Positions 16,557 through 39,371 of a stretch of DNA of 64,000 nt are shown piece by piece. The translations under genes and the position numbers were made by a program. The stretch spans positions 31-64,030 of the forward strand of contig DASZRG010000039.1 of the NCBI GenBank assembly GCA_035549295.1, written 5' to 3'. Under the pieces are notes generated by a model. That model was not told the DNA's origin. It made no database searches and saw only the letters and a list, made by a program, of their open reading frames with translations. Position 1 is the first letter of the stretch. Every line of letters starts with the position of its first letter. This DNA is from Patescibacteria group bacterium (GTDB lineage: Bacteria; Patescibacteriota; Microgenomatia; Levybacterales; GWA1-39-11).

Positions 16557-16646
16557 GAAACCACATTATATTATAGGTTTATACATTTTACAACAATCCG
16601 ATGTATACTCAGCTAAAATTAAGGTATATGGTAGAACTATAGGGGA

Positions 16647-17222: not shown

Positions 17223-17823
17223 TTACTACAAAGAGTATACCCGCTCCAAAAATAGAAGCTATGAACTGCAGATTACCTGTGTTAGCAAGTCCAAATGCAG
17301 ACGCACCTAGAACCGCGTTGTCTGATCGGCCATCTGAGCGACCGTCTGAACGACCATCAGAAAGGCCATCTCCTGGACCGCCAGGGTTGCCGCCCCCTAC
17401 TTGTGGGTCTCCACATGTAAAATTGGCATTTTGGGCCAAATATGGCTCAGGTTCAAGACCCCATGCAGATCCATCTGGAACATATATCCAACCTTGACTT
17501 GTCATGACCTGAATTTGAGCAGGATCCATATTGCCGACTTTTTGCCAGTTTGTCTGAATACCTGCTCCATTGTCTGCACAGAAACATTGCATTAGATTGC
17601 CATCTGAGAGTGTATAAACAGTATCTTTTCCTGTGTGAGTCGCAGAATCTCCTACGATACCGTGAGTACCCGAATCGAAATTCTCTTTTACAGTTCCTTG
17701 AGGATTAACACAATTAGGGAAGTCAGCGTTCGTCGCAGCTGAGGCATGGCTTACTGCGCTTATCAATAAAGCTATATTTAGAAGTCCAATTTTTATACCG
17801 TTTTTAATATTCATATTAGGCAC
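17191..17823 (-). CDS. LAXTG-type sortase-anchored surface protein
   Basis: N-terminal signal peptide, a Cys-containing domain, a Gly/Pro-rich linker with (SDGR)x3, then the sorting signal LANTG, a hydrophobic segment NLQFIASIFGAGILFVVIGLL and a positive tail KSRENK. Confidence 0.7.
   Translation of the reverse strand: MPNMNIKNGIKIGLLNIALLISAVSHASAATNADFPNCVNPQGTVKENFDSGTHGIVGDSATHTGKDTVYTLSDGNLMQCFCADNGAGIQTNWQKVGNMDPAQIQVMTSQGWIYVPDGSAWGLEPEPYLAQNANFTCGDPQVGGGNPGGPGDGLSDGRSDGRSDGRSDNAVLGASAFGLANTGNLQFIASIFGAGILFVVIGLLKSRENK
17321..17368. repeat. in-frame 12-bp tandem repeat x4 (tctga-cg-cc-) encoding the (SDGR)n linker of the LAXTG protein
   Basis: Units are tctgatcggcca / tctgagcgaccg / tctgaacgacca / tcagaaaggcca. 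Confidence 0.6.
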
Positions 17824-19150: not shown

Positions 19151-19167
19151 ACTCTATAAATTAGTTT

Positions 19168-19230
19168 TTAGCGTTTAGCGTTTGGCACTTATTTAAAGCT
19201 ACCAACCCCCAAGAGCTAACAGCTAACTCC
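19168..19230. repeat. dispersed ~70-bp intergenic element with inverted ends (TTAGCGTTTAGC ... ACCAACCCCCAAG ... GCTAACAGCTAA), copy A
   Basis: ttagcgtttagcgtttggcacttatttaaagctaccaacccccaagagctaacagctaa. Confidence 0.55.
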
Positions 19231-19231
19231 A

Positions 19232-20863
19232 TTACTTCTGGTACCCAAGCGTCGGTTTGGTGTTTATGGTTTTAAGAAACTGTGGCTTGATCTCATAGAT
19301 ATCGGCAAACGGATAGTGATTGACAAGTGTATAATCCCCATTTTTATATGCCGCCGTTTTACTCACGAGCTTAAAAGTTTGGTCGTTATTGTCATTTGTA
19401 CGCATAACTATCCATCTAGCCCACCTGTCGGGAGCAGTTGTCGCACTTATCCAGTAGGCGCCCGTTCCTTCGTGTATAAATTTACTCATTGGCAAACCAG
19501 ATGAGAAGATAATAGCATCGTGGGATGCGGCAGAGATCAAAACAAATCCAGGCTTATTTTTAGCATTAGCAGCAAGCCACCCAGAAACCTCAGTAACGTT
19601 TTTCTGACTTGAACCAACTCTCGCATCGTCAATAGTTACTGCATCGGCATTCGCAAATGAAAAGTAAAGAACAAACGCAAGAAGCGCAATAACAATAATC
19701 TTTAATTTATCAATTTTTTGAGTAAGATAGCCTATAAATATGGCAATCGAAGGCATCATGAGAATGCCGTATCGAACATTAAACCAGGTGTTTCCTGATA
19801 AGCCCTGAATAAACAAAACTGATTGTCCAGCATAGAGGGCTATTACGTTAAAAACAAGAGGCACAAAGAGTGCTGTGGCCGCAATTTTTATGTCAGTTTT
19901 TATCTTCTTATCAAGCCACAAAAATGCCGCACCTATTACCGAAAGAACTGAAATAAACGCGTTTGAGTTATATGCAAGTGCAAAAAGATAAACTTTTATT
20001 GAAAATAATAGATCGCCTTTTGTAGGTAGATTTCCAGCCTCAGAAAGCTGCGATTGTTGAGTCGCAGCAGCATAAGGTCCAAAAATAAAGTATAGAGGAT
20101 CTTTGAAGATCAAAAGATTCCACAAGAACCAAAGAGCTATTCCAAGCCCTGCAAGCGTACAAAAAAGAATAACGGTCCCCTCAGCTGCTTTGTATCCCTT
20201 TTTACGGAAGACTTGCAAAGCGATTAGACCGCTTGAGAAAACGAACAAAAACCAACCATCATAACGAATAAGGGTTGCGAGCATAACAAAGAACGCTGCT
20301 TTTATAAGGTGGAGAGTGTCGTCATATTTGAACCATTTAAGAAGCTGGTATATAGACGCCGTCATAGTTGCAATGAGGAGAAGTTCTGTCATTGCGGTCG
20401 ACTGAAGGTAAAGGACATTTAAATTTGCAGCAAAAACAACTACTCCCACAACTCTACCTAGAATTCCCACTCCAAGCTCCTCCAAGAATTTATATATAAG
20501 AAGTCCCGTTGCGACAAAAGATATCATCGAAACAATCGCCCCAGATAAACCTGAATGCCACATAAAATCATTCCAGATAGTCAAAACCATTAGTATGTGC
20601 GGCAAAGGAAGCCACACTGATCCAAGCTGAGCAGCACCAGGTTTCAAACCTTCGACAACACGACGTCCTATATCAAGATGTGACCTTGCATCGTTATATG
20701 CGAGACCTAATCCGTTTTTCAAGAAGAATAAGTAGTAAAATGTTGCCGCTGACACTAGAAGAAAAAGCAAAGCTTCAAATGTATGCTTTTGGACAAACTT
20801 ATTAATCGTACCAATGGTACTTTTATTAAACTCAAACTCTGATAAAAATTTATTCATTTTCAT
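19232..20863 (-). CDS. GT-C fold membrane glycosyltransferase (ArnT/PMT, GT39/GT83-like)
   Basis: About 12 TM helices with an N-terminal loop DARSHLDIGRR and a C-terminal periplasmic domain. The start probably lies at internal Met codons near 20863/20857 rather than 20908, which gives minimal overlap with the upstream ORF. Confidence 0.45.
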   Translation of the reverse strand: MKMNKFLSEFEFNKSTIGTINKFVQKHTFEALLFLLVSAATFYYLFFLKNGLGLAYNDARSHLDIGRRVVEGLKPGAAQLGSVWLPLPHILMVLTIWNDFMWHSGLSGAIVSMISFVATGLLIYKFLEELGVGILGRVVGVVVFAANLNVLYLQSTAMTELLLIATMTASIYQLLKWFKYDDTLHLIKAAFFVMLATLIRYDGWFLFVFSSGLIALQVFRKKGYKAAEGTVILFCTLAGLGIALWFLWNLLIFKDPLYFIFGPYAAATQQSQLSEAGNLPTKGDLLFSIKVYLFALAYNSNAFISVLSVIGAAFLWLDKKIKTDIKIAATALFVPLVFNVIALYAGQSVLFIQGLSGNTWFNVRYGILMMPSIAIFIGYLTQKIDKLKIIVIALLAFVLYFSFANADAVTIDDARVGSSQKNVTEVSGWLAANAKNKPGFVLISAASHDAIIFSSGLPMSKFIHEGTGAYWISATTAPDRWARWIVMRTNDNNDQTFKLVSKTAAYKNGDYTLVNHYPFADIYEIKPQFLKTINTKPTLGYQK

Positions 20864-22334
20864 AATCTTTTTTAGGTGTAAAAATAAAATACGCACCTGC
20901 TGCAACAACCAAAGCTAAAATAACGAAGTAATAAGCGACGGCTGGGATGCTTTTTTGCAAAACAAAGTTATAGAAAAATGAGTCAAGCTCACCCTTCTGA
21001 AGCATTCGAATGTTGATTATGTACCACGAATCAAGATTGATATATCTAGCCTCAACGTAAGGTGGAATAACATTTGTTGTCAGGGGAGCAAGGAGCGAAA
21101 TAGCTGCGCTGTATGTAAAGACCACGATGTATATAATTTTTACTAAAAGATTTTTTGCAAAACGCTGCAGTCCAACCCCAGCAAGAATACAAAGCTCGGG
21201 AAGTACTGCGATCATATATCGAGATCCAAACGCCCATCCACCATATGGATCTCCAAACATTGAATAAAGGACAAGACAAGTTGCAGGTAGAGCGAGTAAT
21301 CCTGCCTCCTCCCATTTTTTACTTTTTTTCAGATACCCTACTCCAAAAATAAATAACAAAACAACTGGTGAGTAAACCAAGATCCCACGGTCATGACTAA
21401 CTGTGAAAGAAGTAAGTCCATTCAGCAAATTCCTAGTTCTCAATGCACCCGTCGCATCAGTTCCTGATTCAGGAGCTGAAAGGTCAGTATTTTTAAGATC
21501 TTTTACTCTTGGAATGGTATTACTAAATTTAAGAGGGCTTCCGAAATGAATATAGTTGTAGTAACCATAAACAGTCATGAGTGCAAGAAATATAATCGGC
21601 GCAAAGATTACAAACCAATTTATTTTTATCTTAAATTTCTCTTTAAACTCTGTAATATTTACCATCTTGAGTGTTGCAAGCCCAACGATAGGCAAGAATA
21701 TAAATAGATTTGGAAAATCGACAAATACCGCCATACTATACAAAAACCAAGCGAGAATAGCCTTTATTCCACGCTTTTTGTCATCAAGCGGCAACACGAC
21801 GAAAAGCCCCAATAAGAGTAGAAATGCTGAAACTAAATGCGCATATAACGTAACCGAATAACCCCACGCGTTTGTTGCAAACCCAAATGCTACTGCTGCA
21901 AATGCTGATATGCTCCAGTGCAAACCAAGTCTCTTTGAGAACAGAAATATCATAATAATTGTCAAAAAGGAGAATATCGTTGAAATTGAAAAAGTGAATA
22001 TCTGAGCTGCTCCAAGTTGAGTTCCCAGAATATACAAAGGAATGGCCATCATAGATACGGCAGGCGGGAAAAAAGAGTAATAGTGACCTTTTAATGCACC
22101 AATGTCAGGCGTTCCCATTGAGGCATAGTTGTCTATCGCAAAAGAATGGTCATTGATAAGTGATAAAATTATTGCGTATCTAGACCTCTCCTGGGACGTT
22201 TCAAAAGCTTGACCAGAAGAATTCTCCTCAAACTCAATTTGATGCGGCGTAGGATTACCTGCTTGTCCACGAAAAGTAAGCGCAAATAAAAACAACGAAA
22301 ATACAACTAAAAATGGAAAAATATACTTTTTCAT
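20850..22334 (-). CDS. GT-C fold membrane glycosyltransferase (ArnT/PMT-like), second paralog
   Basis: 494 aa with many TM helices and a first-loop acidic motif (NDHSFAIDNYASMGTPD), in the typical GT-C arrangement. Confidence 0.45.
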   Translation of the reverse strand: MKKYIFPFLVVFSLFLFALTFRGQAGNPTPHQIEFEENSSGQAFETSQERSRYAIILSLINDHSFAIDNYASMGTPDIGALKGHYYSFFPPAVSMMAIPLYILGTQLGAAQIFTFSISTIFSFLTIIMIFLFSKRLGLHWSISAFAAVAFGFATNAWGYSVTLYAHLVSAFLLLLGLFVVLPLDDKKRGIKAILAWFLYSMAVFVDFPNLFIFLPIVGLATLKMVNITEFKEKFKIKINWFVIFAPIIFLALMTVYGYYNYIHFGSPLKFSNTIPRVKDLKNTDLSAPESGTDATGALRTRNLLNGLTSFTVSHDRGILVYSPVVLLFIFGVGYLKKSKKWEEAGLLALPATCLVLYSMFGDPYGGWAFGSRYMIAVLPELCILAGVGLQRFAKNLLVKIIYIVVFTYSAAISLLAPLTTNVIPPYVEARYINLDSWYIINIRMLQKGELDSFFYNFVLQKSIPAVAYYFVILALVVAAGAYFIFTPKKDYENE

Positions 22335-22336
22335 AT

Positions 22337-24118
22337 TTATGCAAAAGAACTTTTCAACTTTAATAATCTCATAAAATTACTATTGAAGAGAAGTCCCAAA
22401 TCTGATATCAAAGTTTGAAACTGGCGAGTATCAACTCTGCCTTCAATACAAATTCTATCGATCGTAAATTTGTCAGCATCTGACACTTGTCCACCATCCG
22501 TTGAAAATGCCGCTTCAAATCCAGCTTTCTTAACTACTTCTTTTACCTGGTCTGTATACTCACCCATAGGATACGCAAAGTATTTGAGTTTAAAACCAAG
22601 CTTTTTTTCAAGTCTTTTTTTGCCATCAATTATCTCTGATTTGAGTGCGGCAGCAGATAATGCCGAGAGCTTCGCGTGCGTGCTTGAATGGAAACCCACT
22701 TCCCACCCCATAGATTTAATCTTCCTCATATCCTCAATGGACATAAGCTCTTTTGTGTTTGCAAGAGTCTCTCGATTCGGCTCCTCGCTCGCTCCGAGGA
22801 CGAAGATCGTCCCGACAACACCTTCCTTTTTCATAATAGGGAGGGCGTCTGTCATGAAATCACGATATCCATCGTCAAATGTAATAGCTATGTTTTTGGT
22901 ATTATTTGGTTCATTAAGCATCTGATCAAGACTTACAATGTCTCGCATTTTTTTGATATATGCTATTTGCTTTTTAAAATTGTCTTCATTAACCGAATAC
23001 CTCCAACTATCATTGCTAATTGAATGGTAGCAAAGAATCGCAGGCTGCTCTGAAGCCTTTGACTTAAGAAGATTGTTGAGAAAACTTAAAACATTTAGAC
23101 CGCCAAAATAAATTTTTTCACCAAAGGTTGTTTTGTTAATAACTCCAAGATCAACTGCAACAGATTCCATATGCTTTTTAAGGAAGTTTTCCGCCTCGAT
23201 ATAATCTGGGTCGTTTTTTGCTCTAATCGCCATCATTTGAATAGCGTAATAGATAGATAGAGCGACAAATTTTTTCTTTTCTTGAGGTTTATCAAAAAAG
23301 CTACCGAATAGCTCGACCAAAGTTTTATGAGGTAATTCTTCAGAAAAGTATCGAACTGAATGAGCTGCATCTGTTTCAGGATCTGCTAGAACACAAATTT
23401 CAGGGTCAATAACATAAGCTTTTTTTCCTTTTATCAAAATATTTTGTGAATGTAGGTCTTTATGAGCTAAAATGTATTGCGTTCTAAATATAGAAGAATT
23501 TGCATATAGGCTCAAAAAACTACGCAAGTAAGAAAAATAACTCTTTATATTTTTAAAATCTCGCAATGTAACAAGCGTCAAGAATACTGGAAACGTCAAA
23601 GTTATTTGTAGTGAAGATCTCTTCGGAAGTTTTCTTAGCGTTTCAGAGGGTATATTTTTTGAGATATTTTTAAAGTCCTCGAGTATTCCTTTTATTGTTA
23701 CAACTTTTACCTTTTCGCTTACTTTGACAAGCGGTGTACCGTCAATTAACTCTGTCACAAGATGCAGGCTCGCAATGTTTGAGATAAATTCAAGAACTTT
23801 TGGAAAGGCTACTGTTTTTTTACCAGGTAGATTAGATAGTAGCTTGAGCATGTTACCTTCATTTAAAAGCTGTTCGTAAGCAAGATTTTTAGCACCAAAT
23901 TCAACAGTTTTTATAATAGCTTTTTTATTTTTTTTAGAACTAAATACTCCAACCGAAGTCCAACTTTCATCATTCTGCGCTTTTATAAGGTTGACAAGCT
24001 TATACCCGGCAACGCGATTAACATCTGAGGGTCTAGGGCTCTTCTTGAAAAGTCTTTCGTAAGCACCCATTATGCTACCTTTTAAGTAGTATTTTGCTGT
24101 TAAAAAATGCTCTTCCAT
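22337..24118 (-). CDS. bifunctional protein: N-terminal protein-kinase-like/APH-fold domain fused to a C-terminal polysaccharide deacetylase (NodB/CE4) domain
   Basis: The kinase-like catalytic loop is ILAHKDLHSQNILIKG (compare HGDLHPGNIL) plus a YVIDPE metal-binding-like motif. The CE4 motifs are ITFDDGYRDF, FHSSTHAKLS and YFAYPMGEY. The probable start is an internal Met at 24118. Confidence 0.55.
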   Translation of the reverse strand: MEEHFLTAKYYLKGSIMGAYERLFKKSPRPSDVNRVAGYKLVNLIKAQNDESWTSVGVFSSKKNKKAIIKTVEFGAKNLAYEQLLNEGNMLKLLSNLPGKKTVAFPKVLEFISNIASLHLVTELIDGTPLVKVSEKVKVVTIKGILEDFKNISKNIPSETLRKLPKRSSLQITLTFPVFLTLVTLRDFKNIKSYFSYLRSFLSLYANSSIFRTQYILAHKDLHSQNILIKGKKAYVIDPEICVLADPETDAAHSVRYFSEELPHKTLVELFGSFFDKPQEKKKFVALSIYYAIQMMAIRAKNDPDYIEAENFLKKHMESVAVDLGVINKTTFGEKIYFGGLNVLSFLNNLLKSKASEQPAILCYHSISNDSWRYSVNEDNFKKQIAYIKKMRDIVSLDQMLNEPNNTKNIAITFDDGYRDFMTDALPIMKKEGVVGTIFVLGASEEPNRETLANTKELMSIEDMRKIKSMGWEVGFHSSTHAKLSALSAAALKSEIIDGKKRLEKKLGFKLKYFAYPMGEYTDQVKEVVKKAGFEAAFSTDGGQVSDADKFTIDRICIEGRVDTRQFQTLISDLGLLFNSNFMRLLKLKSSFA

Positions 24119-24119
24119 A

Positions 24120-25013
24120 TTATTTGGTACTTGAGATCTGTGACCATGAACCACCTATTTTTCGTGGGCTTATAAATGAGACTAAATGCACATAAACTTG
24201 CACAAGTAAATATGCGAGAGAAACAATTAGATCTTTATTAAAGTAGATCATAAGAGTTCGAATTTTTTGGACAACTGTGAAGTGCGGACGCTTGTTTGGC
24301 AGAAAATCTAGCTCTTGATCTGATATATGACGCGATAAATAGCGACTCATTTGTTTTACATAATCTTTTAAATTTGCGGGTAACGAAAAATATACAACAG
24401 CACCCTTTTCAAACCCTATTCGTTTTCCAAGACTTTTTGCATAAAGGTAGTAAAACTCGTCATGCATATAGTTATATTTTTTAATTCTTGCTTCTGGGAA
24501 ATCTGCAATTCTGAGTATAATAACTGGGTCTGAACTTCGAAAAAACATTTGGTCTACTTTTGCTTTTTGCACCATATCTTCCCAGACATAAAACCCTAAC
24601 TGGCCAATTTTTTGTGCCAAGTTTTCAGCTTTTATAGGCTTTGCGAAGCCAGATACGGCAATCAGTTGGTTATTTGCTGTAATTTTTTTGAACAGCTTTG
24701 AAACAATTAAGTTCGATTTTATTTGAAGGTCTGCATCCAAAATTACCAAGAAGCTATATTTTTCGGTTTTTGCCTTTGAGATTAAGGCTTTGATTGCGGC
24801 GGTTTTGCCAACCTGTTTTTTTGATTCGATAACCTCAACGTATTTATTTTTGATATTTTTTATAATCTCAACTGATTTATCACGACTTCCATCCGAAAAA
24901 ACAGCAATTCTCCTATCAAAATTGCCCTTCTGGGAAAGCGCAGACATCACAACGCTCTCGATCGAACGTTCTTCGTTGTAGGCTGGAATTCCAATTAAAA
25001 TTCTTTTTTTCAT
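24120..25013 (-). CDS. family 2 glycosyltransferase
   Basis: ILIGIPAYNEERSIESVV...VFSDGSRDKSVEI...ILDADL (GT-A DxD). Confidence 0.75.
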   Translation of the reverse strand: MKKRILIGIPAYNEERSIESVVMSALSQKGNFDRRIAVFSDGSRDKSVEIIKNIKNKYVEVIESKKQVGKTAAIKALISKAKTEKYSFLVILDADLQIKSNLIVSKLFKKITANNQLIAVSGFAKPIKAENLAQKIGQLGFYVWEDMVQKAKVDQMFFRSSDPVIILRIADFPEARIKKYNYMHDEFYYLYAKSLGKRIGFEKGAVVYFSLPANLKDYVKQMSRYLSRHISDQELDFLPNKRPHFTVVQKIRTLMIYFNKDLIVSLAYLLVQVYVHLVSFISPRKIGGSWSQISSTK

Positions 25014-25019
25014 AACGAG

Positions 25020-25628
25020 CTAAATTGATGCAGATAAATTAGAAATTCTGTTGAAAAATATCATTCTCTGCCTCACGTATTGCCTAACAGACGAACCATT
25101 GAGTTTCTTTTTCATTTCCACATACTCCCTAAGCAACTTATTATTTGACTTTATTAGCTGATCTTGCTTTATCGTACTTGAAAAGCTTCTCAGGGATGGA
25201 TCAGCAAGCAAAACTTCTACTTTTATGTTATTTCGCATGAATTTCCACTCAACAAATCGTTTTCTTTCTTTTGTCGGTTCTCCAAACAGCTTACTAAGCT
25301 TAGGTGTATACTTTTCAAACTTTTGCGGTGGGCAAGCGATCAAGAGGTCCACATCATTAAGGCCAAGTATTTTATAACTGGCTGAGCCAACAAAATACAC
25401 TTTTAGAGTTGGTGTTATGTGCTTAATTTTAGCTATAATCTTCTGACCCGTTGTTGATAAATCTTTTCTGAAAGGCTTCATTACAACACGTCGCTTATTC
25501 GAATACGTATATAGATATAAATAATCTTTTGGAGATTCACATAAAAGTTTAAGATCAACCGCCACGTACTTAGCCAAGCTATTGAATCGTCTAATTATTT
25601 TTGAAGTAAAGCCTGCGATATTTTTCAT
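25020..25628 (-). CDS. nucleotidyltransferase-fold protein (GrpB / aminoglycoside-lincosamide NTase-like)
   Basis: YFVGSASYKILGLNDVDLLIACP fits the pol-beta-type GS-x9-DxD pattern. The start is taken at the internal Met (25628) to avoid a 50-nt overlap. Confidence 0.4.
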   Translation of the reverse strand: MKNIAGFTSKIIRRFNSLAKYVAVDLKLLCESPKDYLYLYTYSNKRRVVMKPFRKDLSTTGQKIIAKIKHITPTLKVYFVGSASYKILGLNDVDLLIACPPQKFEKYTPKLSKLFGEPTKERKRFVEWKFMRNNIKVEVLLADPSLRSFSSTIKQDQLIKSNNKLLREYVEMKKKLNGSSVRQYVRQRMIFFNRISNLSASI

Positions 25629-25632
25629 AAGC

Positions 25633-27633
25633 TTAAATCTCCACGATAACTTTCGTGCTCGTTGCAATCTCCCACATTCCATATGAATTTAAGCTGTCTG
25701 TGTATGGAGTGATTTTTAATATTAGGTTTAGCGCTACTGCCAAAGGTACATAGACTGGGTTTTTGAAAAGTGTTTTAAAAAGTCCTCGTAGCTTGTACAC
25801 CATTGAGATGTCGTGCAACTTCTCTACATCTTCACCAAAATATTCAACAAGTACGTCGCGTTCATTAAGAAACCTCTTGCCTTGCAATACAACTTCGCGC
25901 ACGTTTTCCGGTGTTTTAAAGAGAATTGAAACATTTTTAAGGAATCTAAATCCATTTTTCTCTTTCGCTTTTACATATAGATATTCTTCATCGCAGGTAA
26001 TATCTGAAGGATAAATGAAAGATTTTGAAAACTTTTTTCTTAGCATGCTCGCTCCTCCATAAAGGTTTGCGATATGATCCCCGCCGTTTATATCTTCCCT
26101 TGTATTATTCCAGAGCAAATTGTTCGCATAGATTATGCGACCCATCACGCTTTTTGCCTTAGCGGGAATAAAATTGCCTGCTGCAACTTGTGCTTTTTTA
26201 TCTTTTAAAAACACTTCAACCATTTTACCGAGTGTTTCCTCGTCCCTTAAATAAACATCGGCGTCAAAAGTTGCGAGCAAATCACTTTTGTTTATTTTGT
26301 AGATTTCATTTAAGCGGTGCGGCTTCCCACGCCTTACTATTCCCCCCATTACTTTTATTCGCTTATCACTTTTTGCGAGTTTCTTTGCAACCGACAAGGT
26401 TTTATCACTCGACCCGTCAATATTTATATAAATTCTTTCAAGTCTGAAATTTGAATTTTTCTGCTTTTTAATTGAAGCGATTAATTTCGACAAGTTACCC
26501 TCTTCGTTATATGCTGGAATGCCAACGCTTACAGAAACTGTATTTGACTTTATCGTATCTAAAATAACGTTTACTATCTTTCTGATTGTTTCCATGTTTA
26601 TGTCGTGAAACATAGGAAGACAGAGGATCCTCTTTGCAACTGATTCAGAAACAGGACAAGCTACATACTCAACATAAGGCATAGTGTTAAGTGATGGATA
26701 GAAATACCTTCTTGGAAATATGTTTTCTGCTTCAAGAGCTTTCTTAACAAGAAGAAGCTCTTCTTCACTTTTAAAAACAACTGGGAAATATGAGTAATTG
26801 TAAATAACGCTATTCAAATACTTAATTTCGTGAAGACCACTGTCCTTAAGAAGCCTTTTATACTCGTCGTACGCACGATTTCTAACCTCACGTATGGCAG
26901 GTACATATTTTAGGTTAGCAAGACCCATTGCAGCGTGCATTTCAGAGTTTTTAGCATTAATACCAAGTTCTGTTGGAAAACCTTCACGAGAAAGCCCAAA
27001 ATCACGCATTCTACGCACTTTCTTGGCGACTTTGTCGTTATCTGTTATTACAAATCCTCCCTCAACTGTGTGGAACAATTTTGTTGCATGAAGACTCAGC
27101 GTTGAAACATCACCGTATTTAAATATTGATCTGCCGTTAATTTTTACCCCAAACGCATGTGCCGCATCGTATATAACCTTGAGATTGTGCTTTTTAGCTA
27201 TTTTTTCAATTTTTTCAACGTTACAGGGATATCCAAACACGTGCACCGCAAGAATAGCTGTTGTTTCAGGCGTTATAGCAGCTTCAATCTTTTCCTCATC
27301 AATTGTAAGATCGTCTTCTTTGATGTCGACAAAAACAGGCTTACAATTCTCCCATACAATTGATGTAGTAGTCGCAGCAAATGTAAAAGGTGTAGTTATG
27401 ATTTCTCCACGAAGATCAAGCGCGCGTATTGCAAGTTGTATTGCAACTGTACCGTTTGTAACAAAAAAAGCATGTTTAACTTTTAGGAGCTTTTTGATGT
27501 TATTTTCAAGCTCCTGCGCGAGCACTCCGTGATTTGTAATCCAGCGAGATTCCCATGCACGCTTTAAAATCTTTTCGTACTCCTCAAAAGGTGGAAGAAA
27601 GGTCCTTGTAACTAATACTTTTTTACTTTGCAT
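25633..27633 (-). CDS. fusion: DegT/DnrJ/EryC1/StrS-family PLP-dependent sugar aminotransferase (N-terminal) + family 2 glycosyltransferase (C-terminal)
   Basis: The N-terminal segment carries FFVTNGTVAIQLAIRAL...AILAVHVFGYPCN...DAAHAFG (DegT). The C-terminal segment carries VSVSVGIPAYNEEGNLSKLIASI...YINIDGSSDKT...ATFDADV (GT2). Confidence 0.65.
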   Translation of the reverse strand: MQSKKVLVTRTFLPPFEEYEKILKRAWESRWITNHGVLAQELENNIKKLLKVKHAFFVTNGTVAIQLAIRALDLRGEIITTPFTFAATTTSIVWENCKPVFVDIKEDDLTIDEEKIEAAITPETTAILAVHVFGYPCNVEKIEKIAKKHNLKVIYDAAHAFGVKINGRSIFKYGDVSTLSLHATKLFHTVEGGFVITDNDKVAKKVRRMRDFGLSREGFPTELGINAKNSEMHAAMGLANLKYVPAIREVRNRAYDEYKRLLKDSGLHEIKYLNSVIYNYSYFPVVFKSEEELLLVKKALEAENIFPRRYFYPSLNTMPYVEYVACPVSESVAKRILCLPMFHDINMETIRKIVNVILDTIKSNTVSVSVGIPAYNEEGNLSKLIASIKKQKNSNFRLERIYINIDGSSDKTLSVAKKLAKSDKRIKVMGGIVRRGKPHRLNEIYKINKSDLLATFDADVYLRDEETLGKMVEVFLKDKKAQVAAGNFIPAKAKSVMGRIIYANNLLWNNTREDINGGDHIANLYGGASMLRKKFSKSFIYPSDITCDEEYLYVKAKEKNGFRFLKNVSILFKTPENVREVVLQGKRFLNERDVLVEYFGEDVEKLHDISMVYKLRGLFKTLFKNPVYVPLAVALNLILKITPYTDSLNSYGMWEIATSTKVIVEI

Positions 27634-28750
27634 AAGAAGCCTCCTTTTTTAGAACCATGTAGAAAAATTCTTCAAATTCGCTTGCAACGCGTGACCATGT
27701 GAACTTTGCAGCGTATCGACGAGCTTCTTTTCCGAGCTTGCCGTTTTGGTTTTTTTTGACTGCATCAAGCAACAGGCTTGCATACTCGTTTACATTGAAA
27801 GCTTTAGCCTTTGATGCAACATTGTCGCCTGTCCAAGAAATTCCTGGTATATCAAACGCAACGAGTGGAAGCTGTGAAGCCAAAGCTTCTAGTGCAAAAC
27901 ATGAAAATGTTTCATTTCTTGAAGGAAAAGCAACAAAAAGTGATTCTGACAAATATGCGGCTTTTTTGTCACCATAAGTTGGACCGACCATCGAAACTTT
28001 ATTTTCGAGTTTCAATTTCTTAATAAGTTCGGCAACCTTCTTCTCATCGGGACCATTTCCTGCTATAACAAGCGGATATTTAACTTTGTTTGCTATTTTT
28101 GCATAAGCATGGAGAAGCAGATCGATTCCTTTTTGATCCATATCAAGTCTGCCGAGAAAAAGAATATGCTTTGAGCGCTTTTTCTTTATTTTGAAGAATT
28201 CTTCACCGACACCTTCTGGTATAACTGTTGAGATAACTTTTGGGTTGGAAACCTTCATTTTCTTTTCAAAAAATATAGTCAACGCTACAAAATATTTGTA
28301 AAAACGAAGCCCAAAACGCTCGACTAGATAAAATGGAAGGTGGTACATTTTTGAAAAACGATCCGCTTCAAAAGACGTTGAAAGACCAACGACAGGAATA
28401 TTTGTAAACAAAGGCGAAAGAAGCGTTGAAACAGGAGCCGTAAAGCACTCGAGAATAACATCTACATTTTTGAGGCTTGTTACGGCAAGCGGTGCAGCAG
28501 CAAGATATGCGAAATTATTTACCTTAATGTTGCCCGTGCCAATACCGATATGCTTGTAATAAATTCCATTCTCAAATCTATCCTTATACCCTGGGTACTT
28601 TGAGCAAAGGACTGTGACTTTGTGTCCTTTCTCAACCAGACGACCACCAACCTCATAAGTTGCCCTTGCTTGGCCACCGTTAAGTATTGGATTTTTAACA
28701 TCATCAAGATCCAAAAACACAATATGCAGTCTTTTATTTATTTTCTTCAT
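27623..28750 (-). CDS. family 4 (GT1-clan) glycosyltransferase
   Basis: N-terminal LHIVFLDLDDVKNPILNGGQARATYEVGGRLVEKGHKVTVL. The C-terminal E-x7-E-like region is FPSRNETFSCFALEALASQLPLVAFDIPG. Confidence 0.7.
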   Translation of the reverse strand: MKKINKRLHIVFLDLDDVKNPILNGGQARATYEVGGRLVEKGHKVTVLCSKYPGYKDRFENGIYYKHIGIGTGNIKVNNFAYLAAAPLAVTSLKNVDVILECFTAPVSTLLSPLFTNIPVVGLSTSFEADRFSKMYHLPFYLVERFGLRFYKYFVALTIFFEKKMKVSNPKVISTVIPEGVGEEFFKIKKKRSKHILFLGRLDMDQKGIDLLLHAYAKIANKVKYPLVIAGNGPDEKKVAELIKKLKLENKVSMVGPTYGDKKAAYLSESLFVAFPSRNETFSCFALEALASQLPLVAFDIPGISWTGDNVASKAKAFNVNEYASLLLDAVKKNQNGKLGKEARRYAAKFTWSRVASEFEEFFYMVLKKEASYAK

Positions 28751-28751
28751 A

Positions 28752-31241
28752 TTAAAAAAGTGAGATTATTCGAGAGAATGCAGTTGTTGCTTTCGCAAAT
28801 GAAAATCTTGATTTTCTGGCCTCAACTTCCTCATAAGCGGTTAGGTAGAAGCTGTTTGCGCTATTTTTCCAGTTAAATTGCTTCGCCCACTCAAAGGCAT
28901 TCTTAGAAGTGGTATTTCTAAAAGATTTGTTTGTCAAAATTTTGTTAAGAGCTGCTGCAAATTCATTAACGTCCCCTACGCGCGCAAGAAGTCCAGTTCG
29001 AGTGTCAATTATCGAATCCCTCAACCCATTTGTGTCAGATGCAACGACAGGAGTCTTACACGCATTTGCCTCGATAACAGTTATTCCCCATCCCTCAACC
29101 TGTGAAGGCTGCACAGCAACCCATGCTTTTGACATAAGCTCGATTTTCTTAGAATTTGTGACTTTACCAAAGAACTTTACTTTTTTGGTAAGACTTTGCT
29201 CTACAACTATATCCCTTAGAATATCTCCCATATCACCTTCGCCTACGATCCAAAATTCAGCATTTTTAAGACGTTTTAGAATTTTTTTGAACGCATGGAT
29301 TGCAACATCGATATTTTTGTATGCCTTGAGTCTGCCAACATACACAACAGATGGGTATGTTGTTTTTTTGTATTTCCTGGAAGGAAGATCAATTCCTGGG
29401 TTGATTATTTGAATATTTGCCTCATTTGCAATTCCATTTTTTACTATTTCCTCTTTTGTCGAGGAAGAAACCGTAATCACTGTTCGGTTGCGATAGACGA
29501 ATGGCATTATTTTGCCCTCGATAAATCTTCCGATATATGAAAGGGGGAACTTCATTTGCGAAATAAACACGTCTTGGTGCACGTGATGGATCAGAAGAAG
29601 CACTGGTTTTGTTGAAAAAAGCGGTGTAAAAAATGGTATTCCATTCTCAGAGTCAACAACTACATCAAAATTTTTTCTAAATTTAAATATGTAGTAAAGC
29701 GCGGCCCAAATATATACCGTGTAAAATCCACCACGTCTTATCACTTTAACTCCATCGACAGTTTGGTTGCGTGCGCTCTTGCGATCATTCCCACAAAATA
29801 AAGTGACCGAATTACCCTCTTTCACCCACTGTTTTGCAAGTTCATGCACATATACTTCTGCGCCCCCTGCCCACATGTGCTTTGTGTCGCGCCAATTAAA
29901 TATCAGAATTCTAAGTCCGCGAGTATTTTTTTGGTTTTTCCATGGCAAAAACGCCTCAAAAAAGTCGTAAAGGTTGATTGCAACTGTTTCATATGTTGAT
30001 TCAAACATATATAAAAGTCCCAAAACAACAAGGTTTACAAAACCCATGACAATCATAACGTTTGCAATAGCAGCCATTGAATTGTGGTAAAGATTTATTC
30101 CAAGAATCTGAACAAGCGCTAGAAGAAAGCTTACAATTGGAAGTAAATGCTTACCTTTGATCTGCTGGAAAGCTACGATATTCGTTGCAATTGTAAAGGC
30201 AACCATAGATAGTGCGTATCCCGAGATTAGTGGCACAATAGGAAGCGCCTTACTTCCAAAAACAAGCGGCATTGTGATAAAACCAAGAGCTCCGAAGAGA
30301 ACATAGGCAGCGAAGCTTGAAACAAATGATGCAGCAAGAAGTTGATAGAAGACTTTTCTCGAGCTTCCACCCGCACCCTCTTTGTGGCTGACTATAGGTA
30401 AAATAAACTGGGCAAATAAATATCCAGCAAAGAAAACCATCTTACCTGAGAGAGATAAAAGTGCATAAAGTCCTGCTTGCTCTTGAGACAAAAAGTGCTT
30501 TGCAAGAACAACGTCAATCGAAAGATAAACAACTGTTGAAATTCGAGTCAAGGCTGAGGACAAATAAAAACCTGCTGGAAATTTTTCTTTTGCTTTAGTT
30601 TTAGCTTTCTCTGGAACTACTTTTACCCTCTGCGCGGCTATTGTAATCAATGAAAATGAAACAAATGTAGAGAAAACTACGGCTGCATATACATACTTCT
30701 CAAAGCCTAAAATAACCAAAACAAATGAAGCAACAAATTTTACAACAGACTCAATTACAGCGATTGTCGCCAAATAGTTAAACTCCAAATTTCCTGTTAG
30801 ATATCCTCCATCAACTGAAGCAACTATCGTGAAGAACCAGATTGGCGTAAATGCCAAGATAGGAAGTACACTTCCAATATTAAAAAAGTTAGCAATTTGT
30901 GAAGCAATAGCGAGCCATGCAACAGTTATAACTACTGCTAAAAGTATTGACCTGCCTCTAAGGTACTTCCAAAACCGCGTCGCAGGCTGCTTATACTTTC
31001 CAAATAAATATGCACTTTTATAAGTAACTGTTTTACCAAGGGCTCCTATTGGAATATCTGACAAGCTCAGGATACTTCCAAACAACGAAATTAAGGCGAA
31101 GTTCTCGATACTTATACTTCTTCCAAGATATGCGTTGTAAAGAAGGTTAAAAAAGTTTGAAAACACAGCTGCGCCGACAAGGTACGCACCTCTCTTTTGT
31201 GTTTTATCAGCATTTAAGATTTTTTTTGCGAATGATTTCAT
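28752..31241 (-). CDS. fusion: polysaccharide-biosynthesis/Wzx-like multi-TM flippase domain (N-terminal) + GT4 glycosyltransferase (C-terminal)
   Basis: About 12-14 TM helices in the first ~480 aa. The C-terminal segment carries RILIFNWRDTKHMWAGGAEVYVHELAKQWVKEGNSVTLF and EGWGITVIEANACKTPVVASD (GT4). The start is taken at ATG 31241 (MKSFAKK), 1 nt after the upstream stop. Confidence 0.6.
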   Translation of the reverse strand: MKSFAKKILNADKTQKRGAYLVGAAVFSNFFNLLYNAYLGRSISIENFALISLFGSILSLSDIPIGALGKTVTYKSAYLFGKYKQPATRFWKYLRGRSILLAVVITVAWLAIASQIANFFNIGSVLPILAFTPIWFFTIVASVDGGYLTGNLEFNYLATIAVIESVVKFVASFVLVILGFEKYVYAAVVFSTFVSFSLITIAAQRVKVVPEKAKTKAKEKFPAGFYLSSALTRISTVVYLSIDVVLAKHFLSQEQAGLYALLSLSGKMVFFAGYLFAQFILPIVSHKEGAGGSSRKVFYQLLAASFVSSFAAYVLFGALGFITMPLVFGSKALPIVPLISGYALSMVAFTIATNIVAFQQIKGKHLLPIVSFLLALVQILGINLYHNSMAAIANVMIVMGFVNLVVLGLLYMFESTYETVAINLYDFFEAFLPWKNQKNTRGLRILIFNWRDTKHMWAGGAEVYVHELAKQWVKEGNSVTLFCGNDRKSARNQTVDGVKVIRRGGFYTVYIWAALYYIFKFRKNFDVVVDSENGIPFFTPLFSTKPVLLLIHHVHQDVFISQMKFPLSYIGRFIEGKIMPFVYRNRTVITVSSSTKEEIVKNGIANEANIQIINPGIDLPSRKYKKTTYPSVVYVGRLKAYKNIDVAIHAFKKILKRLKNAEFWIVGEGDMGDILRDIVVEQSLTKKVKFFGKVTNSKKIELMSKAWVAVQPSQVEGWGITVIEANACKTPVVASDTNGLRDSIIDTRTGLLARVGDVNEFAAALNKILTNKSFRNTTSKNAFEWAKQFNWKNSANSFYLTAYEEVEARKSRFSFAKATTAFSRIISLF

Positions 31242-31242: not shown

Positions 31243-33603
31243 TTAGATAAGAACGGACATAGCGAATTTAAGCGGCTTTTCAAAAGTTCTCCATCCAAAA
31301 TTACCAACGACATAAACAGCACGCACAGGTGCAGCTGCAACGCTTCTAACACTAATGCTTGGAAGTGCAGGAATATCAATCCAACCAAAAGTTTTTCTAG
31401 GTTGTTCGTCGACCTTCTTCTCAGGTTTCGCAGCAACTACCTGAGGCTTGGTCTTGAGAAGATGCAATCCGTGAACAGTCTTCTCCCAGTAATGAGGTTT
31501 GAAAAGAAGCTGGTACAATGCAATAAACGCTGAAATACTTATCATGATCCAGTAAATCGGGATCAAGTAAACATATTTCATGAGACTCCACTGACCCTTT
31601 TTTGCAACTCCGATCATGTAGTAATACAAGAACATGAAATTACCAAACACGAGTGAAAATACAGCCATATAGAAAACTGCGCTTGGGTAAAGAGCTTCAA
31701 TTTGTGGCCCTACGTAAGCATAGAGCGCAAAATATGCAATTGTTGCAAGCCATAAGAATGGATTTATCAAGACGAATGCAATTTTTCCACCGATAAGAAG
31801 CTGGAACATCAGTGAATGCTTCTGGGTCATTCTTGATTCGGATGGTCTCGTGTGAACGAGATATGTCTGCATGTAACCCTTGATCCATCTAGACCTTTGT
31901 CGCAACCAGTTACCAAAGCGGCTATTTGCTTCCTCAAGTGTTACAGAATCAATAATCGCAGTTTTAAAACCCTTCTTAAAAAGCCTTACACCAAGATCGG
32001 CGTCTTCAGTAACATTGAACGGATCCCATCCTTCAACGGCGCGAAGACTTTCTATCTTAAAGTGATTTGACGTACCACCAAGAGGAATAGTCGTATCGAC
32101 CGACTGTAATCCAGTAAGTGTTACATCAAACCAAAGCGAATATTCGGCTGTAAAGAATCGAGTTAGTAAATTTTGGTTAGGGTTGTAATAATTAAGTTTT
32201 GCCTGAAGACAAATAGTCTCGGCTGATACTTTCGAAAAGGCAACATATGCTTTTTTAAGCTGAAGTGGGTCAGGCATATCCTCAGCATCATAAATAACCA
32301 AATATTCACCCTTTGCATGCGATAGACCATAATTACAAGCCTTTGGTTTTGTTTTTGGTGCGGAATCAGGAACTATAAGAGTTCTTACGTATGATGGTAA
32401 GCTCATTTTTTTAACTGCCTCAATTGACTCTTGGTCGTCTGCTTCAAGAAGCAAGATCACGTCTAGTTTTTTCTTAGGCCATGAAATCTTTTCTATGGCG
32501 CTCATAAACTGAGGTATAACGTGAGCCTCTTTATATAGCGGACATAAAATCGTGTAGATCGGTAGATCACGATCATTAAGTCTTGCAATCTCGCTTTTTG
32601 TCGATGTAATCTCCTGTGGGTGTGCCAAACTTTTACCGATAAGGTACATGTTGAAAAGTACGTCGGCAAAATAAATCGAAGACAAGGTTGCAACTACGAT
32701 CTGTAAAGTTAGCTTTGTATTAATGTAAAGCCCAAGTAAAACGTCAAGAATTATAAGTCCTGAGATGATCTTTTGAGCAAGTGTAAACGTCGTAAGAGCT
32801 GATGCATCATGCTTTATCGTTGTGTGCGTTGTGTACTTTCTTTGTTTGTATCCAATACCCGCACCAACCATAGCCTGTCCAGTAGGCGCAAAATGAATAG
32901 GTTCTATTTTTTTCGCACGAACTCTTATTGCATTTATTCCTATCTCAAGAGTCTGTTTAACAAAGTTCATCTTTGACTCGCCATTTACACGAGGAGCAAA
33001 AGTAATATTCTGGTTGACTATCTTGAATCCCGCCTCTTTTGCACGGTGAAGAAATTCAAGATCAAAAGTCCAAGGAGACGTTGGGTCAAACTTGACAGAA
33101 TCAACAACTTCTTTTTTGAAAAGCTTCAAACCTGACTGGATATCATGTTTTAAGTTAAATAGAGTGCTTCCGAAGACAAATCGAAACACACGGCTAAAAA
33201 CTCTTCTCGAAACGGAATCTTGGTAATTCTTCCTGTTTGTGACAACAATATCTGCAGTATTTAACTTTTCAATCATTTCAGGCAACGCCTCAGGCGGATA
33301 TTGCAAGTCAGCATCAATCATCGCAACGCTTTCGTATTTCGCGTGACGCATACCCTCATAAATTGAATATGACTTACCTTTTTTACCCTGCTTGAGAAAA
33401 TATGAGACAGGATAAAACATCGCCATAGCAGAAATAGCTGAAAGCGTACTGTCTGTTGAATGATCATCAATGAAGATGATTTCGTATTTTATATTTCTTT
33501 TTGACAAAGTTTTGTGAACGCGCTTTATAAGATTCTCAACGCTTCCTTCTTCGTTGTATGTTGGAACGATAATTGAAACTGATTTTTTAAGTGTTTTACC
33601 CAT
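31243..33603 (-). CDS. dual glycosyltransferase: N-terminal GT2 (DPM1-like) + membrane-embedded processive GT2 (cellulose/chitin-synthase-like, QxxRW)
   Basis: The N-terminal segment carries VSIIVPTYNEEGSVENLI...IFIDDHSTDST...IDADLQY. The C-terminal segment carries TEDADLGVRLFKKGFK and the processive-synthase motif QRSRWIKG, with several TM helices. Confidence 0.65.
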   Translation of the reverse strand: MGKTLKKSVSIIVPTYNEEGSVENLIKRVHKTLSKRNIKYEIIFIDDHSTDSTLSAISAMAMFYPVSYFLKQGKKGKSYSIYEGMRHAKYESVAMIDADLQYPPEALPEMIEKLNTADIVVTNRKNYQDSVSRRVFSRVFRFVFGSTLFNLKHDIQSGLKLFKKEVVDSVKFDPTSPWTFDLEFLHRAKEAGFKIVNQNITFAPRVNGESKMNFVKQTLEIGINAIRVRAKKIEPIHFAPTGQAMVGAGIGYKQRKYTTHTTIKHDASALTTFTLAQKIISGLIILDVLLGLYINTKLTLQIVVATLSSIYFADVLFNMYLIGKSLAHPQEITSTKSEIARLNDRDLPIYTILCPLYKEAHVIPQFMSAIEKISWPKKKLDVILLLEADDQESIEAVKKMSLPSYVRTLIVPDSAPKTKPKACNYGLSHAKGEYLVIYDAEDMPDPLQLKKAYVAFSKVSAETICLQAKLNYYNPNQNLLTRFFTAEYSLWFDVTLTGLQSVDTTIPLGGTSNHFKIESLRAVEGWDPFNVTEDADLGVRLFKKGFKTAIIDSVTLEEANSRFGNWLRQRSRWIKGYMQTYLVHTRPSESRMTQKHSLMFQLLIGGKIAFVLINPFLWLATIAYFALYAYVGPQIEALYPSAVFYMAVFSLVFGNFMFLYYYMIGVAKKGQWSLMKYVYLIPIYWIMISISAFIALYQLLFKPHYWEKTVHGLHLLKTKPQVVAAKPEKKVDEQPRKTFGWIDIPALPSISVRSVAAAPVRAVYVVGNFGWRTFEKPLKFAMSVLI

Positions 33604-37446: not shown

Positions 37447-37674
37447 AGAATGTATCACGAGTTTAATACTACAAATAAGCAAAGTTCAATTAAGCAAATT
37501 AATCTATAAATGAATCAATGGATAAATTTATATTTAGAATTTTATACATTTAACAATTTAGAATTCATTTGAACTTTATCATTTGCATATTTGATTACTA
37601 AGATTGGCAGTGTTACCCATCTTAACTTTCTCCCCCGCACCTTTTCCAAAACCCTAGTATCTAATATCTAGTTT

Positions 37675-37902: not shown

Positions 37903-37991
37903 AGAGAAATTATATCACCCCCCAACCTCCCAAACTTCCCCAACTACCCTAACTCTTGAAAATAACCTCTTCGGAAATGTAGAATCATAAT

Positions 37992-39212: not shown

Positions 39213-39371
39213 CGCGTTTGCGTGTTAACGAGTTCAATATTTAAAAATTCCAAATTTCTAATAGCTAGTTACTAATCAAGTTTTAATAAATTAACAAATT
39301 ATCAATTTCTATTTTTTAGAAATTAAAAATTAGTAATTAGAAATTCCAACGATGCTCTGATACCCTATGAC

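Follow-up and report, generated by a model that had tools for sequence, protein, structure and literature searches.

Glycan assembly at bacterial membranes usually calls on several separate proteins. In the three-component logic of glycosylation, as outlined in PMC11127046 and, for the structure of ArnC, in PMC12690121, a flippase moves a polyprenyl-linked sugar and a GT-C enzyme uses it outside. In E. coli O9a, the bifunctional kinase-methyltransferase WbdD caps the polyprenol-linked O-antigen (PMC3482155). Here we analyse a stretch of 64,000 nucleotides (64 kb, 'the window') of contig DASZRG010000039.1, from a bacterium of the Patescibacteria group, in which three open reading frames each join two glycan enzymes: (i) a kinase-fold domain and a CE4 deacetylase, (ii) a DegT-type aminotransferase and a GT2 glycosyltransferase, and (iii) a transporter-like membrane module with the MOP fold and a GT4 glycosyltransferase. 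We know of no characterised Wzx or MurJ with an attached glycosyltransferase, and the enzymes of the Arn pathway are all separate proteins. All coordinates below are positions within the window, and minus-strand genes read from high to low numbers.

28752 to 31241, minus strand: fusion (iii), MOP-GT4, 829 amino acids (Pfam, NCBIfam, AlphaFold2 and Foldseek)
25633 to 27633, minus strand: fusion (ii), DegT-GT2, 666 amino acids (Pfam, 293 and 74 bits)
22337 to 24118, minus strand: fusion (i), kinase-CE4, 593 amino acids, predicted to be cytoplasmic (Pfam, NCBIfam, AlphaFold2 and Foldseek)

It is very probable that these are real, active and functionally coupled fusions in a conserved envelope-glycan operon. 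We also consider it likely that selection maintains the three reading frames as genuine multidomain enzymes, and that their operon, of a kind typical of Microgenomates-type Patescibacteria, serves to make a cell-surface glycan or glycoconjugate. Each frame is uninterrupted, with zero internal stops, exactly where the original prediction had placed it, and its six domain assignments stand: both halves of every fusion are backed by hidden Markov models (HMMs), conserved catalytic residues or predicted folds. The ATG starts at 24118, 27633 and 31241 either follow immediately on the stop of the gene before them or share its final bases (for instance, a TAA at 31245-31243, one base, then the ATG at 31241). 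Chance is not an issue for reading frames of 593 to 829 codons in DNA of 36-39% GC, with domain E-values down to 1e-87.

Could at least one of the fusions be an artefact of assembly, sequencing or gene calling, with a missed frameshift or stop? The window derives from a metagenome-assembled genome, which leaves some room for such errors. However, independent assemblies, dozens to hundreds of them, show the same architectures at near-identical lengths; the linkers are short, and purifying selection acts on either side of the junctions. Homologues from NCBI, JGI, ENA and Logan assemblies are 35-61% identical over 88-100% of the length, and full-length relatives number five for fusion (i) (35-48% identity), 27 clusters for fusion (ii) (42-61%) and all 119 of the other matches listed for fusion (iii) (40-61%). 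Because these full-length homologues come from independent assemblies, we rejected frameshift and misassembly, and an artefact in any of the three is extremely improbable. By annotation, the close relatives belong to Curtiss-, Levy-, Gottesman-, Ames-, Roizman- and Shapirobacteria, all of them Microgenomates.

That the fused partners are functionally coupled is well supported, since split and fused forms occur in syntenic loci and the domain order may be reversed. Substrate channelling, proposed along with the original prediction, is a reasonable inference. The same prediction held that these architectures are uncommon; this is true outside the present lineage but fails inside Microgenomates, where MOP plus GT4 is standard (120 of 120 best matches). 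A literature search on CPR (candidate phyla radiation), Patescibacteria or Microgenomates and on Wzx-GT or DegT-GT fusions returned nothing relevant, which, given incomplete coverage of subscription journals, is weak evidence of novelty.

The membrane module of fusion (iii), a fold of 12 transmembrane helices at amino acids 1-431 (~29949-31241), measures about 430 residues rather than the 480 first proposed, and is followed by a linker of ~15 amino acids and the GT4 domain at amino acids 446-829 (~28755-29906). The GT4 half carries the Glycos_transf_1 and Glyco_transf_4 domains (138 and 61.2 bits) and an E-x7-E motif, 'EGWGITVIE', nearly invariant in 63 sequences, as is characteristic of this family. 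It should face the cytoplasm, given the 12 transmembrane helices and the basic N-terminus.

The membrane module is harder to classify. It has no Pfam match of its own, even at E-values up to 10, and a MOP-GT4 profile run against PDB sequences retrieved GT4 matches and nothing for the membrane part. Its predicted structure is clearer: an AlphaFold2 model of the N-terminal 455 amino acids, built from 63 sequences, has a pLDDT (predicted local distance difference test) of 91.6 and 12 transmembrane helices, within the 12 to 14, in two six-helix bundles, that define the MOP fold. All 49 Foldseek matches in the PDB at E<1e-3 are MATE, MurJ or WzxE proteins, with TM-scores of 0.6-0.73 over ~430-450 columns. 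The likeness to WzxE, TuaB and MurJ thus consists of the 12-helix MOP fold (TM-scores up to 0.73), a weak similarity to TuaB and the glycan locus. The differences are that the window protein falls under every PST family cut-off and that its transporter is covalently tied to a whole cytoplasmic GT4; in 51 of 120 relatives a synthase-type GT2 is attached as well. The label 'Wzx-like' given to this module originally is therefore secure for the modelled fold, and suggestive for the family, where the PST sequence signal is weak.

Among the 120 best matches, 69 are MOP-GT4, 49 are GT2b-MOP-GT4, one is GT2a-GT2b-MOP-GT4 and one (P0327) has an extra kinase-like domain behind MOP-GT4, echoing MviN, which combines a MurJ with a pseudokinase. 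MOP-GT4 is thus the usual architecture in Microgenomates. The additional GT2 domains are encoded just upstream in the window, by a fourth fusion that the original prediction did not include:

31243 to 33603, minus strand: GT2a-GT2b fusion, 786 amino acids, first gene of the operon (Pfam, NCBIfam, transmembrane prediction and motifs)

Only the TAA and single base mentioned above separate this gene from MOP-GT4. GT2b is joined to MOP-GT4 in 51 of the 120 best homologues, and a single protein of 1630 amino acids at a related locus, L083, contains all four domains. Pfam Glycos_transf_2 matches the window gene in two stretches (129.6 bits), together with Glyco_tranf_2_3 and Glyco_trans_2_3. GT2a (amino acids 1-235, ~32899-33603) resembles polyprenyl-phosphate glycosyltransferases of the ArnC, GtrB and DPM1 type; NCBIfam ArnC aligns with amino acids 7-216 (E 4.7e-25), and the gene also matches AglJ, PpgS, CelA and PgaC. 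Two transmembrane helices follow, and GT2b (amino acids ~300-786, ~31246-32706) is a membrane-embedded GT2 with the motifs 'TEDADLG' and 'QRSRW' in its translation, as in the synthases BcsA, NodC and PgaC, so that processivity is predicted. Transmembrane helices are predicted at 276-316 and 598-696. The presence of a synthase-type GT2 near a CE4 enzyme recalls the NodC/NodB and PgaC/PgaB pairs.

These neighbours bear on what the MOP domain transports. Instead of acting as a Wzx-type flippase, it could have as its cargo a polyprenyl-phosphate monosaccharide, or a glycolipid produced by the GT4 or by GT2a, as flippases of three-component systems do; or it could serve mainly as a membrane platform for a polymer-exporting GT2b. 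The window protein has no Pfam PST match and its fold match does not discriminate inside the MOP superfamily; the operon combines the GtrB/ArnC-like GT2a with GT-C proteins and has neither a small GtrA-type flippase nor a Wzy; GT2b carries the TED and QxxRW motifs of self-exporting synthases and is so often joined to MOP-GT4; and the GT4 domain also matches glycolipid synthases (PimA, PimB, BgsA type and MGlcDAG synthase). On the other hand, about 20 of the 120 homologues do match Pfam Polysacc_synt (PF01943), Polysacc_synt_3 (PF13440) or MatE (PF01554), JGI names the homologues 'O-antigen/teichoic acid export membrane protein', and the TuaB alignment extends over 315 residues. Four charged intramembrane residues, R41, K168, D243 and K267, are moreover nearly invariant in the MOP domain, as expected of a working transporter. 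On balance, we regard a role other than Wzx-type export as rather unlikely.

Fusion (ii) joins a DegT-type, pyridoxal phosphate (PLP)-dependent sugar aminotransferase (amino acids 1-361, ~26551-27633) to a GT2 domain (amino acids 362-666, ~25636-26550) through a linker of ~5-10 residues. Pfam recognizes both, DegT (PF01041) with 293 bits over amino acids 20-357 and GT2 (PF00535) with 74.4 bits over amino acids 369-536. Residues K185, D156, D406/D410 and D457-x-D459 (D457-A-D459 in the window protein) are invariant in 28 full-length members. The first half has the catalytic PLP lysine of sugar aminotransferases and not the histidine of the dehydratase subgroup; the second scores above the PF00535 cut-off and has an invariant DxD motif. 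The nearest solved protein is DesI, a dTDP-4-keto-6-deoxyglucose 4-aminotransferase (2po3, E 4e-60), whose PLP lysine motif 'SFHATK' aligns with 'SLHATK' here. DesI is also the best NCBIfam match, but with 279.6 bits against a cut-off of 650 for the equivalog TIGR04427 it is the closest relative only, and it differs from the protein described here, to which a GT2 is fused. Like fusion (i), fusion (ii) is predicted to be cytoplasmic, because neither a transmembrane helix (zero at the threshold used for fusion (ii)) nor a signal peptide is found.

Fusion (i) consists of a kinase fold at amino acids 1-355 (~23054-24118) and a CE4/NodB de-N-acetylase at amino acids 356-593 (~22340-23053). The latter matches Pfam Polysacc_deac_1 (PF01522) with 90.4 bits (E 1e-25), and its H365, D415/D416, H477 and H481 are invariant in seven sequences, which gives the Asp-His-His triad seen in NodB, IcaB, PgaB and PplD. 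Its closest solved structures are 6dq3 and IcaB (4wcj); the catalytic residues align, and the histidine of an N-terminal 'CYH' also aligns with IcaB. Predictions return neither a signal peptide nor a transmembrane helix, so the domain would be cytoplasmic like NodB and ArnD, unlike IcaB, PgaB and PplD, and it differs from all of these in being joined to a kinase and in scoring below every equivalog cut-off. We rejected an identity with PgaB or IcaB: the domain has 54.6 bits against 321.9 for PgaB and 51.8 against 248 for IcaB, it has no export signal, and it is joined to an ATP-dependent kinase.

The kinase half was noticed for the motif HKDLHSQNILI...YVIDPE, which we located at amino acids 219-240. 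Pfam APH covers only the C-lobe (amino acids 215-269; 28.5-30.5 bits against a cut-off of 23.2), while NCBIfam APH(3') aligns with amino acids 51-274 (E 1.8e-5). An AlphaFold2 model of amino acids 1-355, from six sequences only, has a pLDDT of 85.2 and a predicted TM-score (pTM) of 0.80. Foldseek finds 1298 matches to it in the PDB at E<1e-3, led by APH(2'')-Ia, APH(9)-Ia and APH(3')-Ia (E ~1e-9). The bilobal fold, the beta3 lysine, the alphaC glutamate, the H-x-D-x4-N loop and the Mg-binding aspartate of the APH/ELK fold are all present. Residues K70, E87, H219, D221, N226 and D238 are kept in 120 to 135 of 135 family members, D238 in all 135. Because this catalytic set is almost invariant, the family is predicted to consist of active enzymes, and we rejected a pseudokinase identity. 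Aminoglycoside resistance was rejected as well: the domain reaches 22.7-24.4 bits against a cut-off of 205 for the APH(3') family NF033068, and its context is glycan synthesis. The comparison with AAC(6')-Ie/APH(2'')-Ia is nevertheless instructive, as its phosphotransferase domain is the best structural match and it too is a fusion of two enzymes acting on amino sugars; it differs in being a resistance enzyme with an N-acetyltransferase, while the partner here removes acetyl groups, in a setting of glycan biosynthesis. WbdD resembles fusion (i) in combining a kinase fold with a second glycan-tailoring domain on the cytoplasmic side of an assembly line. It differs in that the partner here is a CE4 and not a methyltransferase, that the transporter is of the MOP and not the ABC type, and that no coiled-coil ruler is seen; nor does WbdD appear among the listed matches of the kinase model (Foldseek) or of the family profile (PDB).

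How rare is fusion (i)? A word-indexed protein search found about seven proteins, which made the fusion look extremely rare. This was corrected when the kinase domain was run with HMMER exhaustively against 1.84 billion cluster representatives, which gave 445 relatives, 207 of them at E<=1e-10. We typed by phmmer the architectures of 152 proteins, that is, the best 150 of the 445 plus earlier matches: 95 are stand-alone kinases and 44 are kinase-CE4, and the remainder comprise kinase-GT2 (4), GT2-kinase (1), DegT-kinase-GT2 (1), GT4-kinase (2), kinase-GT4 (1), MOP-kinase (1), CE4-kinase in reversed order (1, P0007) and kinase-kinase (2). In this small family, fusion of the kinase-like domain recurs with almost all types of enzyme that the operon encodes: CE4 on either side, GT2, GT4, MOP, DegT and a GrpB-type nucleotidyltransferase. 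A scan of GTDB species representatives yielded mostly CE4-only loci, with a full-length relative of fusion (i) only in locus L003 among the matches listed. Among relatives of the CE4 domain, P0008 and P0026 are fusions of CE4 with a SAM (S-adenosylmethionine) methyltransferase and with a GT2 or GT4; fusion to glycan enzymes is therefore frequent for the CE4 domain, too, beyond this operon.

The four fusions belong to a run of twelve tightly packed minus-strand genes between 16.6 and 33.6 kb, in which neighbouring stops and starts abut or overlap. The other eight genes are:

27623 to 28750, minus strand: stand-alone GT4, 375 amino acids, part of the conserved frame (Pfam Glycos_transf_1, 87 bits)
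25020 to 25682, minus strand: GrpB-like protein with a polymerase-beta-type nucleotidyltransferase fold, 202-220 amino acids, likely start at ATG 25628
24120 to 25013, minus strand: stand-alone GT2, 297 amino acids, one C-terminal transmembrane helix (Pfam Glycos_transf_2, 71.6 bits)
20850 to 22334, minus strand: 'GTC1', polytopic membrane protein, 494 amino acids, putative GT-C glycosyltransferase (transmembrane prediction, NCBIfam)
19232 to 20863, minus strand: 'GTC2', polytopic, ~540 amino acids, PMT_2-type GT-C (homology to L083 proteins; start codon uncertain)
17900 to 19150, minus strand: exported or membrane-anchored protein, 416 amino acids, no assigned family (N-terminal hydrophobic anchor)
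17191 to 17823, minus strand: secreted LANTG protein, 210 amino acids, DGRSD repeats (C-terminal sorting signal)
16647 to 17222, minus strand: sortase, final gene of the conserved block (Pfam Sortase, 64 bits)

Seven related loci (L001, L002, L003, L004, L083, L084 and L085) share the gene order. A constant frame is formed on one side by GT2a-GT2b, MOP-GT4 and the GT4 gene, and on the other by the two GT-C-like membrane proteins, the ~416-amino acid exported protein, a LAxTG protein of ~200 amino acids and the sortase. Fusion (iii) belongs to this frame; fusions (i) and (ii) belong to a variable middle part, or 'sugar cassette'. DegT-GT2, the stand-alone GT2 and kinase-CE4 occur together in the window, L001, L002, L003 and L084. 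In L004, from Levybacteria, the CE4 lacks the kinase and the GT2 of fusion (ii) type lacks DegT, and L083 has no kinase-CE4. The cassette of L085 contains a stand-alone kinase, stand-alone GT2s, FdtA, a different DegT and 4,6-dehydratase-like and RmlD-like genes. The stand-alone GT4 has orthologues at the same position in L001, L003, L083, L084 and L085 (55-68% identity). The stand-alone GT2 has its predicted transmembrane helix at 263-281 and shares 27-35% identity with the GT2 domain of fusion (ii), its paralogue.

The GrpB-like gene scores 22.4 bits with Pfam GrpB, under the cut-off of 25.5, and its translation contains the motif 'GS...x10...DVD', corresponding to the GS...DxD nucleotidyltransferase signature. 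It is absent from L001 and L002, and for this reason we considered a chance insertion specific to the window. This was rejected, as homologues occupy other positions of the operon in L003 and L083, and the gene is 37% identical (E 3e-33) to amino acids 551-736 of a kinase-CE4-GrpB triple fusion of 750 amino acids in L084 (13037-15289). It thus belongs to the sugar-cassette module.

GTC1 has at least nine predicted transmembrane helices and no Pfam match; NCBIfam gives the LA_3751/LA_3752 putative glycosyltransferase family (E 2.5e-13, below cut-off), and each of the six related loci that reach that far has the protein in this place. GTC2 shares 60-75% identity with its orthologues in L001-L004 and 40% (E 3e-115 and 9e-123) with the N-terminal ~545 amino acids of two PMT_2 plus GH5 proteins of L083. 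The latter (14131-16818 and 19044-21713) are paralogues of ~890 amino acids, in which a PMT_2-type GT-C is fused to an extracytoplasmic GH5 domain of the cellulase/mannosidase type.

With an aminotransferase, a polyprenyl-phosphate-glycosyltransferase-like GT2, a cytoplasmic CE4, a flippase and GT-C enzymes, the locus has the ingredients of the Arn pathway and of three-component glycosylation. However, an Arn identity was rejected: no ArnA-like formyltransferase/decarboxylase is encoded in the 64 kb, ArnC matches with 88 bits against a cut-off of 529 and does so on GT2a, not on the DegT-linked GT2, and ArnD has no match on the CE4 domain. The flippase here is a MOP protein and not of the small ArnE/F or GtrA type, and the source organism is, we presume, most probably a single-membrane bacterium without lipid A, unlike the hosts of Arn. 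More generally, no equivalog cut-off was reached for DesI, APH(3'), PgaB, IcaB, NodB, ArnC or TuaB. All domains come from well-known families, and with functions that we infer from these families, established concepts are unchanged so far.

What does the kinase-like domain phosphorylate? It may tailor the glycan. Alternatively, it could be a small-molecule kinase of the NahK, AmgK, MTR-kinase (methylthioribose kinase) or LicA type that activates a precursor and, with the GrpB-like nucleotidyltransferase, salvages a sugar or substituent for the glycosyltransferases of the operon; the fusions would then reflect a supply chain rather than a common intermediate. The H-x-D-L-H-x-x-N and I-D-P-E motifs are like those of MTR kinase, choline kinase and APH and unlike the H-R-D-L-K of protein kinases. 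NCBIfam gives weak matches to MTRK and thiamine kinase, Pfam APH and Choline_kinase match 54 and 22 of 59 stand-alone members respectively, and the best structural matches phosphorylate hydroxyls of amino sugars. The GrpB domain is joined to kinase-CE4 in L084, and the gene is present in the window, L003 and L083. Salvage would also suit Patescibacteria, whose biosynthesis is reduced. However, CE4 is the commonest partner, accounting for 44 of the 57 typed members with a fusion, and to our knowledge the substrates of CE4 enzymes are oligo- or polysaccharides or else lipid-linked sugars, and free monosaccharides are not among them. The kinase is also joined directly to MOP and GT4, which are enzymes of membrane steps, and we know of no polymerase-beta-fold enzyme that makes nucleoside diphosphate (NDP) sugars from sugar-1-phosphates. 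Precursor activation is therefore, in our view, a possible but doubtful explanation.

The domain could also be regulatory, that is, a protein kinase or pseudokinase scaffold that controls or assembles the glycan machinery. There is a precedent for a MOP-kinase pair in the mycobacterial MurJ homologue MviN, with its pseudokinase domain. The family profile finds its best PDB sequence matches among bacterial and eukaryotic Ser/Thr kinases (4eqm, E 2e-8; MARK2), Pkinase matches 30 of the same 59 members, H-R-D-L is present in most of the family, and the many different partners are as expected of a docking or regulatory module. This is nonetheless improbable: the catalytic residues are all strongly conserved, the predicted fold best matches APH-type small-molecule kinases, including their helical C-terminal subdomain, and an activation loop or APE-type motif was not noted in the alignments, although no formal test was made.

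Taking glycan tailoring as the kinase's role, we can sketch how the fusions might cooperate. In DegT-GT2, the DesI-like aminotransferase would convert an NDP-4-keto-6-deoxyhexose to an NDP-amino-dideoxyhexose, and the attached GT2 would use the amino sugar at once, transferring it to a membrane-bound acceptor. Such immediate use would pull the unfavourable transamination forward without the N-acylation step of the Arn type. The substrate class is suggested by DesI being the closest relative among both solved proteins and NCBIfam families, and by the FdtA, 4,6-dehydratase-like and RmlD-like genes in the L085 cassette. Kinase-CE4 may act at the cytoplasmic face. In the manner of NodB and ArnD, it would strip an N-acetyl group from a glycan that is lipid-linked or still being built, and it would add phosphate from ATP, to give a glycan with free amines and phosphate. 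In MOP-GT4, a lipid-linked intermediate on the inner leaflet would receive a sugar from the GT4, and the 12-helix MOP domain tethered to this GT4 would flip the product. Outside the membrane, the GT-C enzymes would complete or attach the glycan, perhaps on sortase-anchored repeat proteins; the likeness of GT2a to ArnC, GtrB and DPM1 and the homology of GTC2 to PMT_2-type GT-C enzymes are consistent with such an extracytoplasmic step.

This leads us to a broader, and tentative, scenario. Microgenomates may build an envelope glycopolymer by an undescribed pathway, in which a self-exporting synthase GT2 and a Wzx-type flippase, the signature proteins of two textbook routes, have merged with each other and with a GT4, in proteins of up to 1630 amino acids; a dedicated family of active kinases would provide a movable module for tailoring or activation, attached by fusion to almost all enzymes of the line, and the product would possibly be a zwitterionic amino- and phospho-glycan on sortase-anchored proteins. 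We hold this scenario to be possible rather than probable. Several observations weigh against the cooperation of the fusions as sketched above. Each specific mechanistic step is drawn from family membership and gene context, and individually these steps range from doubtful to somewhat short of an even balance. The 64-kb window encodes no priming phosphoglycosyltransferase, NDP-hexose 4,6-dehydratase, Wzy-type polymerase or N-acyltransferase. Known CE4 enzymes of the PgaB/IcaB type act extracellularly, whereas the CE4 of fusion (i) is predicted to be cytoplasmic. The GT2 of fusion (ii) resembles GtrB (5ekp) and DPMS (5mlz) weakly, with E-values of 4e-4 to 2e-3 over ~100 residues. The TuaB match of the MOP module (E 5.8e-7 over those 315 residues) has 28.9 bits against a cut-off of 580, and Foldseek does not separate Wzx, MurJ and MATE. 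In sequence, the kinase family sits between APH, choline kinases and protein kinases, so that its target could be a glycan, a free sugar or a protein, and the association of kinase and GrpB-type nucleotidyltransferase fits precursor activation at least as well as glycan tailoring.

Patescibacteria represent a large share of bacterial diversity, and their envelope chemistry is almost uncharted. An operon that recurs across Microgenomates-type lineages and is largely fused offers natural 'Rosetta-stone' evidence on which glycan enzymes cooperate. Interest centres on the megaproteins that unite synthase, flippase and GT4, and on the kinases with their changing partners. Where a flippase shares one chain with the glycosyltransferase that presumably supplies its substrate, the protein could serve as a tool for the debated question of cargo recognition by MOP/Wzx-type flippases. 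With an aminotransferase-glycosyltransferase fusion, channelling or the thermodynamic pulling of transamination becomes directly testable, and the partner-switching kinase family is a concrete, unstudied biochemical target.

The sortase end of the operon provides candidates for the acceptor. The 210-amino acid protein ends in 'GLANTG', a hydrophobic stretch and 'KSRENK', and its homologues end in LASTG or MASTG; the secreted proteins have DGRSD or Thr/Pro repeats before [L/M]A[N/S]TG, the hydrophobic stretch and a basic tail. The LAxTG gene adjoins the sortase gene in the window, L001, L002, L083 and L084, and the LANTG protein is a probable sortase substrate. Beyond the sortase (12828-16556, minus strand) lies a gene for a surface protein of 1242 amino acids that combines GSDH, PKD and SpaA-like domains with a C-terminal tail rich in Pro and Thr; we saw no sorting motif in this tail. 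Glycosylation could target the repeat regions. The 416-amino acid exported protein has orthologues in L001-L004 and L084 (38-65% identity) and no Pfam or PDB sequence match. Its motifs 'CPECENGG' and 'LGEFGAP' hint at a glycosidase of clan GH-A. An equivalence with the GH5 domain of L083 was rejected, as BLASTP found no similarity and the protein has no Pfam or PDB match; the 'GEFG' motif is no more than a hint.

Locus L003 (CAYUPO010000002.1, 111 kb) is, among the matches listed, the only GTDB representative with a complete operon including kinase-CE4. It is labelled 'uncultured Gammaproteobacteria bacterium', probably through an error of binning or naming; the locus has 32.7% GC, and its proteins share 37-60% identity with their counterparts in the window. 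In the window itself, a second cell-wall cluster lies beyond the BipA/TypA gene, at 36544-43630. Its genes encode a stand-alone CE4 (36544-37446), two proteins resembling Mur ligases, a member of the FemAB family, another DegT aminotransferase (40444-41610) and an alpha/beta hydrolase. The gene at 45313-46260 encodes a D-Ala-D-Ala carboxypeptidase.

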